From positions 10,304-74,303 of the forward strand of contig CAVAID010000001.1 of assembly GCA_963588685.1 (NCBI GenBank): 64,000 nucleotides of DNA, in the 5' to 3' direction. Made by a program: the position numbers and the translations under genes. Positions within the stretch are counted from its first letter, which is position 1, and the number at the start of each line of letters is the position of its first letter. Shown piece by piece: positions 6,283 through 56,085 of this stretch. Source of the DNA: a bacterium. GTDB lineage: Bacteria > Bacteroidota > Bacteroidia > Bacteroidales > UBA932. Under the pieces are notes generated by a model. The model was given only the letters and a program-made list of their open reading frames with translations, did no database searches and was not told where the DNA came from.

Positions 6283-6310
6283 CAAATTTAGTCTATTTTT
6301 AGTAATTTTG
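6283..6310. promoter_or_regulatory. Divergent Bacteroidota -7 promoter elements
   Basis: TAAATTTG on minus strand (6283-6290) and TAATTTTG on plus strand (6303-6310) between divergent genes. Confidence 0.6.
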
Positions 6311-6328
6311 CGAACACCCGCATGGATT

Positions 6329-7765
6329 ATGACACACAGCAAATCTTATTTGAAACATTTTGCGGCGGCGGCATCGCTGCTGCTGCTCTGCACCGGGCTC
6401 CTCGCGCAGCCTCTTATCCGCAGCCAGTGGGAGGGGCGAAGGGTCGCCTTCCTCGGCGACAGCATCACCGACGCGCGCCAGATCGGGAGTACCAACAACA
6501 TTTTCTGGAACGACCTCAAGGACATCCTGGGCATCGAGCCTTATGTCTATGGCATCAGCGGCCACAGGATGAACCAGATAATCGGCCAGGGCGAGAAACT
6601 CGAAGCCGAGCACGGCCAGGGAGTGGACGCGATAATAGTATTCGTCGGGACGAATGACTACAACGGCGGCATCCCTCTGGGAGAATGGTACAGTTACTCC
6701 ACCGGCAAGACATTGGAAGACAACGGGATAGAAGTGGAGCGCAGGCAGCGCCAGCTGGTCTATGCCGACTCTACCTTCCGCGGCAGGGCAAATGTGACCA
6801 TGCGCTGGCTCAAGACCCATTATCCCGACAAGCAGATCATATTCCTGACCCCTCTGCACCGCGGCTACGCCACCTTCGGGCCGCACAATGTGCAGCCGGA
6901 CGAGTCCTTTGCCAACGCCCGCGGCAGCTTTATCGAGGAGTATGTGCAGGCCGTGAAGGAGATTTCGAATGTATGGGGAGTGCCTGTGATCGATCTCAAC
7001 AGCATCAGCGGGCTCTACCCGATGCTCGACGAGCAGGCTTCCTACTACCGCAAGCCCGACACCGACCGCCTGCATCCGAATACCCCGGGCCAGCTGAGGA
7101 TGGCGTATGCGCTGGCATATCAGCTTCTCGGCTATCCTGCATATTTCCCTAAATATGTGGCTCTCAGCTTCGATGACGGCCCCAATACCACCACCACTCC
7201 AAAGCTGCTCGACCTGCTGGAGGAGAACGGCGTGAGGGCTTCGTTCTTCGTGATAGGGAACAATATCGACAAAGCTTCAGTCAAGGTGATGAAGCGCGCC
7301 CACGACCTGGGCTGCGACATCGAGAACCATTCATATACCCACTCGCACATGTCCTCCCTAGACGAGTCGCAGATCCGGGAAGAACTCTCCAAAACCAGCG
7401 CCCTCGTGGAGAAGGCGGTAGGGGAGGCCCCGCGCTTCTTCCGTCCTCCTTACATCGACCACAACGAGCTGATGCACAAGACTATAGATCTGACGTTCAT
7501 AAGCGGCCGCGGCTGCCTTGACTGGGAGGCTTCAGTCTCCGCCGAGGCCCGTGCGCAGAGCATCCTCGACAATGTGCGTGACGGAGACATACTTCTGCTG
7601 CATGACTTCAAGGGTAACGAGGCTACCATCGAGGCCCTCAGAACCGTGATTCCGGAGCTCAAGCGCCGGGGCTTCGAGTTCGTGACCGTGCCGGAGCTCT
7701 TCGACAAGGTGAGGGGAGCGGTGCCGCCGGCACACAACGGAAAGATTTACACTAATGTATATTGA
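6329..7765 (+). CDS. SGNH/GDSL esterase fused to CE4 polysaccharide deacetylase
   Basis: GDSITD, GTND and DRLHP (SGNH), followed by SFDDGP, HSYTH, FFRPPY, LLHD (NodB/CE4); ATG at 6329 chosen. Confidence 0.85.
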   Translation: MTHSKSYLKHFAAAASLLLLCTGLLAQPLIRSQWEGRRVAFLGDSITDARQIGSTNNIFWNDLKDILGIEPYVYGISGHRMNQIIGQGEKLEAEHGQGVDAIIVFVGTNDYNGGIPLGEWYSYSTGKTLEDNGIEVERRQRQLVYADSTFRGRANVTMRWLKTHYPDKQIIFLTPLHRGYATFGPHNVQPDESFANARGSFIEEYVQAVKEISNVWGVPVIDLNSISGLYPMLDEQASYYRKPDTDRLHPNTPGQLRMAYALAYQLLGYPAYFPKYVALSFDDGPNTTTTPKLLDLLEENGVRASFFVIGNNIDKASVKVMKRAHDLGCDIENHSYTHSHMSSLDESQIREELSKTSALVEKAVGEAPRFFRPPYIDHNELMHKTIDLTFISGRGCLDWEASVSAEARAQSILDNVRDGDILLLHDFKGNEATIEALRTVIPELKRRGFEFVTVPELFDKVRGAVPPAHNGKIYTNVY

Positions 7766-52293: not shown

Positions 52294-52638
52294 CTATAAA
52301 ATATCAGCGTTCTCGAGATCGTCAATGATGTCAATGAGTTTTTCCCCGTCAATCGAAAAGTTCTTTACCATAACATTCGCATTTTCAAAGACTTCCAGAT
52401 CCTGCTGAAAATTTTTGTCACACCTTGCCACATAATTTTCAGCCGATAGAAAGTAATATGTAACCCCTTTGTAATCAAACTTGAGGTCGTAGCCCATAAC
52501 CGCAAAGTAGTACAAAACAGCTTCTTGGCTATTGTTCTTATAGCCATGATATCTGTCACCGTTTTTCGCGAAATCTGGCTTAAATTCGGAATTATACAGG
52601 TAACCTTCCGAATCTTCTAGAATGTAGTCTTTTGCCAT
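52294..52638 (-). CDS. Hypothetical acidic protein, putative immunity protein
   Basis: 114 aa, Asp/Glu- and Tyr/Phe-rich; starts 3 nt after the stop of the putative toxin gene. Confidence 0.5.
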   Translation of the reverse strand: MAKDYILEDSEGYLYNSEFKPDFAKNGDRYHGYKNNSQEAVLYYFAVMGYDLKFDYKGVTYYFLSAENYVARCDKNFQQDLEVFENANVMVKNFSIDGEKLIDIIDDLENADIL

Positions 52639-52641
52639 AAC

Positions 52642-53013
52642 TTAATTAATATAGTTCCTTACTTTAGCTAAAATGTCTTTCATTTCCTTTGTGAGCGGTT
52701 TCGGATCGCCTACCGGATGCCCATTCTTCCATTCATGATAGTGGTCTTTCAATTCATGGTGAGGGGTGGTATGGATTTCCCATATTTTTTTGCCGTCGGG
52801 GCCATATTTGGCAATTTTCCCGACATCTTTTCCATCAGAACGGATTTCTGCATAAACTCTCCCTGGTGTATGACTTTCTTCAGGAAGGCTATGAGATGCT
52901 TTAGGATTCTTTTTCTCCAAAATCTGAATATCACCGATTGTACCTACAGTCTTGTAGGCCCTTCCGGCTTCACTGTTAGTGGAGCCGGAAGCATAACTGC
53001 CATTACCGCCCAT
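52642..53013 (-). CDS. Small protein with MGGNGS leader and His-rich C-terminus; putative nuclease toxin
   Basis: KYGPDGKKIWEIHTTPHHELKDHYHEW resembles Ntox24-type toxin tips; overlaps the DUF4417 stop. Confidence 0.5.
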   Translation of the reverse strand: MGGNGSYASGSTNSEAGRAYKTVGTIGDIQILEKKNPKASHSLPEESHTPGRVYAEIRSDGKDVGKIAKYGPDGKKIWEIHTTPHHELKDHYHEWKNGHPVGDPKPLTKEMKDILAKVRNYIN

Positions 53014-53731
53014 TTCTCAACATCTTTAAACGTTCATTCTCAAAGTAACAACTGATATCCTCCCGTTCGCCCGGCATCTTTGTCCCATACCTGATTATAC
53101 ATTTGGGCTCAAGACGGTTTAGGGCCTCATGATACCCCTTGTACCACAGAGATTTTGAAAAGTTATTTCCAATGATTGAGGTACAATTGATTGCAATAGT
53201 GCTGTGAGCAGGTATTCCGTCAAAGCAATAGTCAAAACTGTCAGGCAATGACCAAGTGACATTGGGAACAATTTTTACTCCCTTGTTTTGCAAGTACGCA
53301 GAAACGACCTTGTTTCTGAAGCAATTCCATATCCTCATTGGATATGACATGTCTCCAAACTGAGAAAAATCCGGACCTATTACGCAACCATATTGCCTCA
53401 GTTTGTCGTAGTATCTGTCGATATTCCGCCATATCCGTTCAAACTGGTAGTCATCGATATAGAAATGAACACCAACCTCATAGGAGGTTGTGCTCATAGC
53501 AGCATTGAAAGGTATGAACTGCCTGGGAACGTCCCCATTGAAAGGGGCAAGTACAGGCATTTCATACTTCCCGGTTGTTGATATCATCTTGCAGATATCC
53601 AGGTTGTTACAATGCATCTTGCGATGTTTGTGATTACCGTCCTTCTTTTGGACGACAGGGTCTGTGCTTATGCCGGGCACAAGATAGTCGTCAATAGGGA
53701 AAAGGACCCCTTCTTTGTAAAGATCTTCCAT
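53003..53731 (-). CDS. DUF4417 domain protein
   Basis: HFYIDDYQFERIW, PDFS..GDM, IWNCFRN, PNVTW....FDYCFDGIP; start at MEDLY (53731). Confidence 0.85.
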   Translation of the reverse strand: MEDLYKEGVLFPIDDYLVPGISTDPVVQKKDGNHKHRKMHCNNLDICKMISTTGKYEMPVLAPFNGDVPRQFIPFNAAMSTTSYEVGVHFYIDDYQFERIWRNIDRYYDKLRQYGCVIGPDFSQFGDMSYPMRIWNCFRNKVVSAYLQNKGVKIVPNVTWSLPDSFDYCFDGIPAHSTIAINCTSIIGNNFSKSLWYKGYHEALNRLEPKCIIRYGTKMPGEREDISCYFENERLKMLRNGR

Positions 53732-53861
53732 TGTATAACTTATTAGAAGACCCCCCGCCATTTCTTGTCGGAGCCTTTTGGCCGGGGATGCCTGGAGGAC
53801 GACTCGGGTACAAAGCGATGGCCGAATTTGCATTTTGGGTAAATAATTCCTAAAATTGCAG

Positions 53862-53988: not shown

Positions 53989-55080
53989 TTATTGAATCTT
54001 CCTGGTGGCATCGCTCTTGAACTTGTACATGCCTGTCTCATGTGAGATGCGTCCCAAGACAATCCATTTGTTCATATTATTGTCTTCCGCCCACTTAGTA
54101 TACCGATTCTGTATAGTATATTGATTCATAGGGACTTCAGGAGCTGAATTCCATATGTTTGACGGTATTAGGGCTTCTGCCGCAAAATTGTTCGCTTCAT
54201 CTTCGCAATAGTCTTCTGCATCGTCTGAAAGAGATAAAATAGGGAAATCCTCGATATTATGCAGTGCCAGATGCCCGACCTCGTGGAGTATGGCGAAAGC
54301 GAAGTTATCGATCCTTGGAATACGCTTTGTCACCACAATTGCAGGTATTCCATCCTCTCCGTAAAATGTGTAACCGTCTATTGATGCTCGCTCTACTTTA
54401 GGAACGACCTTAAACTTTATACCATACTTTGACAGAGTCTTGGCAACATTGGCTTCAGTGTCCACATTTCTGTGCAAAATAATACACAATTCTTTAGCCA
54501 ATGACATCGACTGATTCTTGTCGAATAGGCCGTCAACAATTATGTCCTTTACCTCATATTTGGCCAAGATTGACCAAGTATTAATCATTCTCTTGTCCAG
54601 CCCCGTTTTCTCAGACTTATGGTATCTTCCAAATGTGCAATTTGTATATTGGAACTGCATCTCAGCTGGAGTAGTAAATCCCATTTCTGTCAAGCAAAAG
54701 TCCAATCGCTCCTTGCATGAATGGAATGTTCCGGCAACCCGTCTGAAAATGGTTTTCATGTCACAAAACTTATCATATTCAGAATATAATCTTTCAGCAT
54801 TTTGTTCTTCAGCTGAAAGCGTCTCAAGCTCTTTGAGTGAACATTCATACCTTGACTGCTCCTTAAGCCAGAACATCTTGGGTATACCGAGCTTTTCTTC
54901 AAGCTTCTCTGCCATTTGCGTATTGATGGCGCGTGTTCCTTTGATAATCTCAGACAAATGAGATGCTTGCATCCCTAGTTGGAATGCAAAATCTTTTTGG
55001 CGTATTCCCCTGGCTTTGAGCTCTTCCTTGATTGTGTATCCTGGCGGCAATACGAGTATTGTTGTTTGATTCTCATTCAT
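53989..55080 (-). CDS. higA: HigA-family antitoxin (XRE-HTH) fused to ImmA/IrrE-like metallopeptidase domain
   Basis: PPGYTIKEEL..RGI.QKDFA, FWLKEQ..Y; RIDNFAFAILHEVGH, EDEANNFA. Confidence 0.85.
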   Translation of the reverse strand: MNENQTTILVLPPGYTIKEELKARGIRQKDFAFQLGMQASHLSEIIKGTRAINTQMAEKLEEKLGIPKMFWLKEQSRYECSLKELETLSAEEQNAERLYSEYDKFCDMKTIFRRVAGTFHSCKERLDFCLTEMGFTTPAEMQFQYTNCTFGRYHKSEKTGLDKRMINTWSILAKYEVKDIIVDGLFDKNQSMSLAKELCIILHRNVDTEANVAKTLSKYGIKFKVVPKVERASIDGYTFYGEDGIPAIVVTKRIPRIDNFAFAILHEVGHLALHNIEDFPILSLSDDAEDYCEDEANNFAAEALIPSNIWNSAPEVPMNQYTIQNRYTKWAEDNNMNKWIVLGRISHETGMYKFKSDATRKIQ

Positions 55081-55378
55081 TGTTAGTTCCTGAAATTTTA
55101 AGTGAGAGTATGTCTATAACGTCTCCTTGGAGCAGAAATACCATCTTGATATTATCAGATCCGTCAAGCGGGATGTGGTAAATTCCCGAACTCTCTTCTT
55201 TGATTGTAATTGATTTGAAGTGTGTAAGGTCTTCAAACCCATTTATGTCTTGTAAAATGTTATATATGTATATAAGTTTGTTTCTGACTGCCGTTTTCCT
55301 CTGGATACAACTGTAAGTTCTGCTTTTTCCAGTCTCAAGCAGAAGTTTTACTTCTATGTCGGAAAAATTAATCTCCAT
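55073..55378 (-). CDS. HigB/RelE-like toxin, apparently degenerate
   Basis: 101 aa upstream of and overlapping higA; MEINF...LLETGK N-terminus. Confidence 0.55.
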   Translation of the reverse strand: MEINFSDIEVKLLLETGKSRTYSCIQRKTAVRNKLIYIYNILQDINGFEDLTHFKSITIKEESSGIYHIPLDGSDNIKMVFLLQGDVIDILSLKISGTNNE

Positions 55379-55544: not shown

Positions 55545-55838
55545 CTACAAATGCCTCGGGAAGTCCATCTTCTCGTGCAGAATGCGTACTATGCGGACTT
55601 TGTTTTGCGAAATCACTCTGTAGAATATGACGTGTTTGCCGCAGGTATAACCTCTCAATCCGGGACGCCACTGACTGTATGAACGGCCGGCCAACGCATG
55701 ACGAGGCAGTTCGCGGCATTCAGCTATAAGCATTCTTATATATCGCTCCGCCTGTTGTCCGGACCATTTCTCCGCCGTATAATCGCCAATTTCTCTAAGG
55801 TCTTGGCGGGCGCGCTCGGATAATACGAAATCAGCCAT
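55545..55838 (-). CDS. parE: ParE/RelE-family toxin
   Basis: LSERARQDLREI.DYT..W...QA..Y, HVIFYR, IVRILHEKMD. Confidence 0.88.
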   Translation of the reverse strand: MADFVLSERARQDLREIGDYTAEKWSGQQAERYIRMLIAECRELPRHALAGRSYSQWRPGLRGYTCGKHVIFYRVISQNKVRIVRILHEKMDFPRHL

Positions 55839-56085
55839 TCTTCTTCCTCCAGCCCTCTTTCATCCCACTGATGAAACTTTCTTCATCAAAATCCTCCACA
55901 TCCGGGCTGGCATCCCCTTCGTCAATCGCTGCGCAGAATGCGTTCAGTTTCGCTTCGTCTTCTTCCAGATGACGAAGTGCCGCGCGTACCATCTCGCTCA
56001 CATTGTTGTATTTGCCGCTCTCGATGCCGTTTTTTACAAAGGCATCGTAGTGGGCGCCTAATGTTACTGTAACCGTTCGGGCCAT
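55831..56085 (-). CDS. parD: ParD-family (RHH) antitoxin
   Basis: SGKYNNVSEMVRAALR.LE, AIDEG..S; overlaps parE. Confidence 0.88.
   Translation of the reverse strand: MARTVTVTLGAHYDAFVKNGIESGKYNNVSEMVRAALRHLEEDEAKLNAFCAAIDEGDASPDVEDFDEESFISGMKEGWRKKNG

Follow-up and report, generated by a model that had tools for sequence, protein, structure and literature searches.

In type IV cyclic oligonucleotide-based antiphage signalling systems (CBASS), according to the accessible text of a preprint (10.1101/2025.04.06.647259), the Met-cleaved, Gly-rich N-terminus of CdnD is modified by the QueC-like protein Cap9, and the leader GGSGGSFGSG is bound within Cap10's active site; Cap10 has the fold of the tRNA-guanine transglycosylases (TGTs) and holds CdnD in an inactive complex. 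A similar essential glycine is described for QatB in the accessible part of PMC13279940. The MuF toxins of phages, as presented in the portions available of PMC5576092, PMC9503650 and PMC7302621, are encoded beside terminase genes and have exchangeable toxin domains, and prophage fusions of ParB with DUF4417 are mentioned, with no fold, partner or function for DUF4417 in the accessible text, in 10.1101/2025.10.10.680097. Here we analyse a stretch of 64,000 nucleotides (hereafter the window) of contig CAVAID010000001.1 from a gut bacterium of the Bacteroidales, and describe at 52294..53731 a cassette of three genes encoding a DUF4417 protein, a basic protein of 123 residues with a glycine leader and an acidic protein of 114 residues.

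The cassette resembles type IV CBASS (Cap10, Cap9, CdnD) and QatBC by the flexible Gly-rich N-terminus of a partner protein, M(G/S)G(G/S)GG in those systems and MGGNGS here, and by the pairing of a protein predicted to have a TGT fold with a Gly-tagged partner. In contrast to type IV CBASS, no QueC/Cap9 and no match to a cGAS/DncV-like nucleotidyltransferase were found in the islet that holds the cassette, the DUF4417 barrel is shorter than that of Cap10 with an apparent Asn at the position of the nucleophile that Cap10 keeps (D248), and the tag is borne by a toxin-like nuclease and, in phages, by many bodies, next to a DUF4417 domain fused to ParB. With no QueC found in the cassette, among the recurrent neighbours or, above the cut-off, in the host genome, the cassette falls outside type IV CBASS, and the likeness in working stands. 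With the MuF toxins, the phage form of the system shares the position beside terminase genes and the exchangeable domains (papain-fold, ADP-ribosyltransferase-like, metallopeptidase), and the predicted fold of the 123-aa protein matches a phage minor capsid protein; a tag of ~5 residues and a separate enzyme are found instead of a MuF domain, and the window copy lies outside any prophage. Membership of the MuF class is not supported, with no MuF match at the islet and no terminase, portal or ParB gene in 80 genome loci. The DUF4417 domain is the same as in the ParB-DUF4417 prophage fusions, without ParB in the window copy.

Taken together, the data presented here are in agreement with a mobile toxin-antitoxin-plus-enzyme cassette that is related to, and probably descends from, a 'glycine tag and cargo' system of phages, and in which the leader would be engaged by DUF4417; we regard this reading as evenly balanced. 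The toxin-antitoxin layer is of a known kind. For the combination of a tag-reading TGT-fold enzyme with exchangeable cargo no counterpart was found: the literature on DUF4417, PF14386 and the PHROG numbers holds passing mentions only, without fold or function, and nothing was found on TGTs together with phages, N-terminal glycine and toxins (in both cases outside subscription papers and supplements), nor, by title or abstract, on MGGRG as a phage or bacterial leader. The TGT fold, the parallel with Cap10/CdnD and the islet adjacent to a dif-like site were all absent from an earlier, sequence-only reading of the window.

Results

A conserved glycine leader as a proposed tag

The sequence-only reading had pointed out three coupled minus-strand genes in AT-rich DNA, and all three open reading frames (ORFs) were recovered where it had placed them: the DUF4417 gene and the 123-aa ORF overlap by 11 nt, and a gap of 3 nt separates the latter from the 114-aa ORF. 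GC content is 41.7% here vs 56.2% for the whole window, and the genes are part of an islet of 3.8 kb with 42% GC. The 123-aa protein begins MGGNGSYASG and is Lys-rich as proposed (15 K, 4 R, 8 H, isoelectric point (pI) 9.0), whereas the HYHEW word, thought to be its end, belongs to a motif YGPDG...HYHEW at residues 70-95 that is followed by 28 residues.

Residues 1-13 of the model of this protein have a predicted local distance difference test value (pLDDT) below 50, which suggests that the leader is probably flexible, and G2, N4 and G5 are kept in 54/55 rows of the alignment. Among the 16,369 Met positions of the host genome followed by at least 100 open codons, a single one has an M[GS][GSA][RN]G start, that of this gene. 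The partner protein thus has the feature known from type IV CBASS, a flexible and conserved Gly motif at its N-terminus. Variants of the leader include MGANG, MGSNG, MGGQ, MGSA and MGNG, with MGTA also in the genus. The association of the leader with DUF4417 was borne out; its fixed feature, as judged from the alignments, is Gly2 plus small residues and not a strict MGGxG. 

Two samples were used for the comparison of loci: from 96 genome loci encoding relatives of the 123-aa protein, the best 80 (most titled Bacteroidales, median 11.9 kb), and from 180 viral loci with DUF4417, the best 80, many of them from closely related gut phages. In 35/77 genome loci, the leader codons contain the stop codon of DUF4417. 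An artefact of gene overlap was rejected as the origin of the leader, since it persists without overlap in 12/77 genome loci and in 80/83 viral cases, of which 39 have it at a distance beyond 60 nt. On this pattern of conservation, the leader is a real tag. A further dialect was seen in the same genus, where a ParB-type fusion is followed by three MGRN-led basic ORFs (L249:952-3319). The word GGRGS in the terminase large subunit, presumably its P-loop, nearly equals the cargo leader (L001:6168-7442 and related loci); the likeness may be coincidental, may be mimicry or may mean that the leader binds phosphate.

Leader-led cargo behind DUF4417 in phages

The statement of the sequence-only reading that DUF4417 genes of phages are often followed by MGGRG ORFs with variable bodies was confirmed by a neighbourhood survey, which found the association in viral, cultured-phage and genome loci. 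In the 80 viral loci, 83 ORFs with an M[GS][GSA][RN]G start lie downstream of DUF4417, against a single one upstream and none on the opposite strand. One to three such ORFs are present in 56/80 loci, their bodies form 11 unrelated clusters, and the arrays lie between ParB-DUF4417 and terminase. The bodies include papain-fold toxin 1 (above the cut-off in 3 representatives), a weak ADP-ribosyltransferase match and a zinc protease; small acidic-looking genes come after the papain-fold genes. The constant N-terminus with exchangeable bodies that characterizes polymorphic toxins is therefore found in phages.

Of the 24 viral loci without a Met-start leader, 23 have GG[RN]G in another way: by eye, 3 begin at a GTG start, 7 have a 6-residue pro-sequence, 12 a pro-domain of 70-80 residues and 1 a preceding LQFF word, which we take to be a Prp protease site. 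Judging from these sequences, a free glycine seems to be reached by different routes. The N-terminal domain of the phage proteins of phrog_5057 ends exactly before GG[RN]G (L023:4646-5428, L049:3001-3762, L054:4599-5408, L225:3623-4369) and is possibly a removable pro-domain; its end resembles, by eye, the end of the third protein of the window. A stand-alone form of this domain weakly matches phrog_3711; the small phage protein beside DUF4417 has E 0.0014 to that family.

Phage records with DUF4417 number 491, and 385 of these are mycobacteriophages. The leader stands behind DUF4417 in five of the six cultured phages inspected (Centaur, SWU1, ReMo, MM1 and Javan174, not LeBron), in two cases in frame and upstream of the annotated start. 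MGGRG starts are missed in the public annotations of SWU1, ReMo, MM1 and Javan174 (L226:1073-2077, L228:1098-1985, L225:4388, L229:3944).

DUF4417 has a predicted TGT fold with an apparent Asn at the nucleophile position

The window protein scores 180 bits against the Pfam profile PF14386 (cut-off 28.9), and an upstream ATG at 53833 would extend it to 276 aa. Its structural model has a pLDDT of 88, and the four best matches among 48,161 chains compared all belong to the TGT family: ArcTGT (Z 10.7, root-mean-square deviation (rmsd) 2.9, 171 residues aligned), QTRT2 (10.3), DpdA (10.1) and bacterial TGT (8.8), with an rmsd range of 2.9-3.4, the next unrelated match having a Z of 7.9. In a second structural comparison, TGTs filled the top 12 rows. 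By its model, DUF4417 has the TGT fold. The barrel is thus shared with the TGT/DpdA base-exchange enzymes (PDB 1iq8, 7ui4, 7nq4; Z about 9-11); unlike them, DUF4417 ends before the zinc/C-terminal part, has 6-11% identity and no profile match, and shows an apparent Asp-to-Asn change.

D94, S123 and W160 are invariant in 186/186 distinct DUF4417 domains and D121 in 184/186; D94, D121 and S123 would be candidates for the Asp/Ser residues with which TGTs read guanine. The window protein keeps all four as well as the near-invariant N232, a position occupied by Asn in 60/63 alignment rows. The catalytic Asp is D279 in QTRT1 and D248 in Cap10 according to the accessible text of 10.1101/2025.04.06.647259. 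The structural alignment ranges end at residue 242 of the model and 289 of QTRT1, which places N232 opposite D279 if the last ten residues align without gaps. The Zymomonas and archaeal TGT rows agree with the nucleophiles D280 and D249 that we assume for these enzymes. On the model, DUF4417 apparently is intact with an Asn at the position of the nucleophilic Asp. A long N-terminal extension (ParB) was found in 0/90 genome copies of DUF4417, in contrast to 76/80 viral copies.

An Ntox24-like toxin candidate

Zhang et al. (PMC3482391) give 'all-beta; Y, H, H' as the definition of Ntox24 and list the family alongside MuF, with secretion systems and in type II toxin-antitoxin pairs. The model of the 123-aa protein (pLDDT 82) consists of a beta-sheet with a C-terminal helix behind the low-confidence leader, and only M1, G2, G5, Y54, H85 and H91 are invariant in 18 phage and bacterial members. 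The invariant Y, H and H and the beta core thus match the Ntox24 signature, the C-terminal helix being additional, and point to an Ntox24-like identity. The Ntox24 profile (PF15529) was matched by 11/78 proteins scanned (72 toxin homologs and 6 partners), one of them above the cut-off, and by 1/55 close homologs (E 0.005); an ESM Atlas cluster also matches Ntox24 (0.90, 22% of members). The small acidic partner gene is shared with the Ntox24 type II pairs. Compared with them, the window protein is below Pfam detection, has no secretion domain but a Gly tag and a DUF4417 gene, and Pfam scans of its partner gave no match to Imm50 or Imm53.

Another fold match of the model is a minor capsid protein of 406 aa from a phage (E 3e-5, template modelling score 0.49). 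The sole PDB toxin of similar size that matches is the DNase PT7 (Z 3.8), a small beta-sheet toxin with a cognate partner (PT7-PIM7, PDB 8owu; accessible text of 10.1101/2021.10.19.465003), as the window protein probably is; with this Z and no Foldseek PDB match at E 0.001, it is kept as a weak lead. One homolog matched the profile of TumE (E 0.0045), also a small toxin with a cognate partner (accessible text of PMC10584680). The PT7 and TumE matches are too weak to assign the protein. None of the three protein alignments gave a sequence match to solved structures (best E 0.03). The protein has no domain beyond its body and the 13-residue leader, no known trafficking domain or secretion system recurs in its neighbourhood, and long fusions of the toxin body were absent among 8000 candidates scored, which is weak evidence. 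From its conserved residues and its model, the 123-aa protein is likely a nuclease toxin, either a DNase or an RNase. Two database proteins, P0256 and P0258, join toxin and third gene in one frame, as fusions or frameshift artefacts.

The third gene and its conservation on chromosomes

The protein encoded by the third gene is small, acidic and aromatic-rich, as had been noted (pI 4.3, 22 D/E, 20 F/W/Y); over the family, the median pI is 9.3 for the toxins vs 4.5 for the partners. Its C-terminal half matches phrog_3711 (E 5e-7), and in the ESM Atlas it falls in unnamed clusters only. By tblastn, the third gene was found in 78/80 and DUF4417 in 74/80 of the genome loci. When decay was counted by profile coverage, all three genes were intact in 65/80 loci, toxin and third gene were intact with DUF4417 broken, partial or absent in 13/80, one locus (at a contig end) lacked the third gene and one had a truncated toxin, an asymmetry that is a pattern and not a statistic. 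Extra copies of the third-gene domain occur in 11/80 loci, and the long forms comprise two tandem-type or toxin-fused proteins plus likely frameshift joins. The tight linkage with a partner kept when the toxin is intact, as in toxin-antitoxin pairs, is found in the genome loci, and by these comparisons the third gene behaves like an antitoxin. Since DUF4417 decays while the toxin-partner pair survives, DUF4417 would not be the antidote.

A second clade in the genus has, by eye, the order DUF4417, acidic protein, toxin. Its toxin is homologous to the window family (hhalign 97%, E 5e-11, with three intermediate variants included in the alignment), whereas its acidic partner is unrelated to the third gene of the window (0.7%). 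Interchangeable tips, as proposed by the sequence-only reading, were thus found in phages with their 11 bodies, whereas the chromosomal form in Bacteroidales appears from these alignments to be mostly one diversifying toxin family with the partner swapped. The host genome has a second copy of the second-clade type (L254:1012-2522, contig C22 of G000), with a decayed DUF4417, an intact MGGQ-led toxin homolog, an unnamed 130-aa gene and an acidic partner of the other family.

Terminase, portal and ParB queries gave 0/80 genome loci vs 77, 46 and 80 of the 80 viral loci, which upholds the stand-alone setting suggested earlier. The recurrent neighbours are HTH-M78 genes of two types ahead of the cassette (15 and 10/80 loci), an unnamed 137-aa protein (13 loci), GmrSD-HNH (12), an EcoRI-type methyltransferase (11), an AbiEii-like ATPase (5) and HipA (2). 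The cassette is in the company of defence and toxin-antitoxin genes with changing housekeeping flanks, and the trio is, as far as sequence comparison tells, a conserved unit outside prophages. IMG/VR searches with the toxin and third-gene alignments gave no confirmed relative; these searches need conserved words, and they missed distant phage homologs found by hidden Markov models. The HTH-M78 gene is a frequent and not an obligate neighbour, the window type being the one in 10/80 related loci; its place before the cassette may reflect shared control by an IrrE-type protease. A protein of 130-140 aa with no Pfam match, often directly upstream of DUF4417 in Bacteroidales (L166:689-1099 and 12 more; L231, L233, L238, L239), is possibly a regulator. 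Some copies in the genus lie, by eye, in prophage-like surroundings without ParB (L234-L237, L251-L253), and one genome has two in tandem.

An acquired islet beside a dif-like site

The features of the islet are given in Table 1. The dif-like site, whose identity we assume from the XerCD consensus, is close to a turn in the cumulative GC skew and stands mid-islet, with toxin-antitoxin-type genes on either side. The site is present in 9/9 relatives, in either orientation relative to the acyltransferase gene, and in the sequence retrieved between that gene and a point beyond the site the islet genes are absent in 9/9. No flanking repeats and no second dif-like site mark an integration. The toxin profile matches 7/301 genomes of the genus and the DUF4417 profile 22/401; from this patchy spread it follows that the cassette was acquired, and it is mobile.

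Table 1. Features of the cassette and of the adjoining islet (window positions).
Feature	Position	Strand	Description	Basis
DUF4417 gene	53003..53731	-	242 aa, predicted TGT-fold barrel, no ParB domain	PF14386 E 4e-53, model, conservation
123-aa basic Gly-leader protein	52642..53013	-	Ntox24-like probable nuclease toxin	phrog_9479; conserved Y54, H85, H91
Gly leader MGGNGSYASGSTN, residues 1-13 of the 123-aa protein	52975..53013	-	proposed DUF4417-read tag	low model confidence
114-aa acidic, aromatic protein	52294..52638	-	probable cognate antitoxin/immunity protein	C-terminal half matches phrog_3711
HTH-Peptidase_M78 (HigA/IrrE-like) gene	53989..55080	-		Pfam; PADLOC PD-Lambda-2_B E 2e-35
101-aa ORF overlapping the HigA-like gene	55073..55378	-	HigB-like	position/layout only
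dif-like site, single copy in genome	55487..55516	-	cassette-bearing islet beside it	
ParD-ParE toxin-antitoxin pair	55545..56085	-	far side of the dif-like site	PF05016, PF03693; composition

The HTH-peptidase gene resembles component B of PD-lambda-2, a system composed of a HigB-like A, an HTH-peptidase B and a P4-antitoxin-like C (PMC9519451); B matches at the islet, and no PADLOC match was obtained for A and C. The 101-aa ORF has no family match in Pfam, PHROG and PADLOC-type scans.

No phage head or packaging family was found (PHROGs, E 1e-15) among 52 likely genes chosen by eye from the 97 window ORFs of at least 150 aa, in line with the absence of phage structural genes stated by the sequence-only reading, apart from one isolated tail-fibre family match (6308-7762, E 3e-30, residues 37-273) that sits in a GC-rich housekeeping region 45 kb from the cassette; secretion genes, also stated to be absent, were not searched. 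The host genome, 97% complete, gave no Terminase_3 match, and with no head genes among the ORFs scanned a prophage remnant was rejected.

Discussion

Proposed mechanism

By the standard rule, the initial Met would be removed and the 123-aa protein would start with a free Gly on its flexible leader. The Ntox24-like nuclease body would be an intracellular toxin that the acidic 114-aa protein keeps in check, which we consider quite probable. The TGT-fold DUF4417 would draw the leader into its barrel, in the way that Cap10 takes in CdnD's N-terminus, and by this analogy engagement of the leader by DUF4417 is favoured to a slightly lesser degree. DUF4417 could then couple the alpha-amine of the leader to the guanine position of DNA or RNA, or to a guanine nucleotide. 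The alpha-amine is the likely nucleophile in this scheme because of the apparent Asn at the nucleophile position and the lack of QueC: no QueC-like gene was found in the islet nor among the neighbour clusters seen in at least 2 loci, and the best candidate in the host genome (19.9 bits vs a cut-off of 150.3) was rejected. Such a covalent coupling is put forward tentatively, as rather doubtful. Two tandem QueD-like genes are present in the host genome (L223:1447-2132, contig C7 of G000), as is a TGT.

In phages, the fused ParB clamp would bring the coupling onto phage DNA, and the tagged effectors would be packaged and injected with the genome, tag and enzyme being used in place of the MuF domain for tethering of the cargo. 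In Bacteroidales chromosomes, the cassette would act inside the cell (addiction or abortive infection), and DUF4417 would be a conditional activator or anchor of the toxin and not its antidote. The strongest version of this scheme, in which DUF4417 is a protein-to-nucleic-acid ligase that joins any protein with an MG-G-R/N-G tag of ~5 residues, through its free N-terminal glycine, to a guanine position in DNA, serving as a packaging tether in phages and for defence in Bacteroidales, is in our view unlikely; there, the enzyme or the counterpart brought by an infecting phage would arm or anchor a tagged nuclease that is otherwise held by the antitoxin.

The modelling of DUF4417 with the leader suggested by the sequence-only reading was addressed by a three-chain prediction, DUF4417 vs the toxin (from Gly2) plus the third protein, which scored 0.45 vs 0.01 for the best control, a run with the toxin replaced, and lends weak support to a complex. 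The runs agree in at least 76% of contacts and the partner pLDDT is at least 84. The mark for a complex was reached by 116/157 solved and 2/215 mismatched pairs; of these, only 18 of the solved pairs, but both of the mismatched ones, scored no higher than 0.60.

Several observations weigh against the coupling cassette. The three-chain prediction differs from its calibration in the number of chains and gives no interface, so that the leader is not shown as the contact. Foldseek against the PDB had no match at E 0.001 for the DUF4417 model or for that of the 123-aa protein; a comparison of DUF4417 with 26 bacterial TGTs by hhalign gave no match (0.1%), and the likeness to TGTs is one of predicted fold only, not of sequence profile. 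The mapping of N232 comes from the range ends only, with three rows off by 1-2 positions. The 123-aa protein of the window itself has no Pfam match and no solid PDB match (best Z 4.5), and in no profile match does its domain form the terminal part of a long toxin that is secreted. The toxin-immunity layout is upheld in the window by the Ntox24-like body and the antitoxin-like third gene, but not in phages, where an acidic gene lies behind 0/24 homologs of the 123-aa protein (phrog_9479), so that its toxicity is not assured, and where a third-gene homolog occurs in 0/80 viral loci, which is odd for a cytoplasmic toxin. Finally, the decay count is biased, the loci having been found with the toxin, some being kin and most being contigs of metagenome-assembled genomes, and DUF4417, which is longer than its partners, is a larger target for decay.

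Other explanations of the cassette

DUF4417 could be a non-catalytic reader or chaperone of the leader that sequesters or releases the toxin with no bond formed, or a reader of a leader first modified by a host enzyme, as Cap10 reads N-terminal 7-amido-7-deazaguanine; to these two variants jointly we attach a low probability. They fit the Asn in 60/63 rows at the apparent nucleophile position, the non-catalytic TGT QTRT2 among the top fold matches, the inactive complex of Cap10 and CdnD described in the accessible text on that system, and the host QueD-like genes and TGT. They are less easily reconciled with D94, D121, S123 and W160, whose strict conservation looks like that of an active site, with the ParB clamp fusion, which suggests action on DNA, and with the lack of a QueC above the cut-off in the host and of a recurrent QueC-like neighbour. 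An enzyme that acts alone, as a DpdA-like exchanger of DNA or tRNA bases with the leader as a by-product of overlap or linkage, would agree with DpdA and the TGTs as best fold matches and with the stop codon inside the leader codons at 35/77 loci; the leaders found without overlap (12/77 genome loci, 80/83 viral cases, 39 beyond 60 nt), their recurrence on unrelated bodies and the absence of recurring 7-deazaguanine pathway genes nearby make its probability slight.

The nature of the 123-aa protein has also to be weighed. It could be a basic nucleic-acid-binding or anti-defence cargo and not a toxin, the cassette being a phage remnant and the third gene an accessory or pro-domain-like protein, in agreement with the phage homologs that have no partner, with the matches of phrog_3711 to the third gene (E 5e-7) and weakly to the small phage protein by DUF4417 (E 0.0014), and with the domain resembling the third gene that is fused, by eye, before GGRG in 12 viral loci. 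We consider this improbable, given that the third gene accompanies the toxin wherever the latter is intact, has extra copies in 11/80 loci and gives way, in another clade, to an acidic protein unrelated to it, that the two proteins have opposite charges (median pI 9.3 and 4.5), and that Ntox24 matches and the lack of terminase, portal and ParB in the 80 genome loci are observed. Export of a polymorphic toxin for competition between cells, with the leader as an export or loading signal (vesicles, or heads of phages of the same system), is very improbable: no delivery gene recurs near the 80 loci, the neighbours being HTH-M78, HipA, AbiEii-like, restriction and methyltransferase genes, and ParB is found in 0/90 genome copies, although Ntox24 is listed with MuF and secretion systems in the accessible part of PMC3482391, the extra immunity-like copies in 11/80 loci resemble poly-immunity arrays, and some members of the genus have their cassette in prophage-like settings (by eye).

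Implications

The cassette of the window is the smallest form of the system seen here, with an enzyme, one cargo and one antidote in 1.4 kb and no ParB, and toxicity of the cargo, if present, would give a direct genetic read-out. It bears on the open question of onto what TGT-fold proteins such as Cap10 transfer the tagged N-terminus. If coupling through an N-terminal Gly holds true, it would represent a new post-translational chemistry and, in phages, a new route for loading effectors into heads, and the short tag may provide a tool for protein-DNA ligation.

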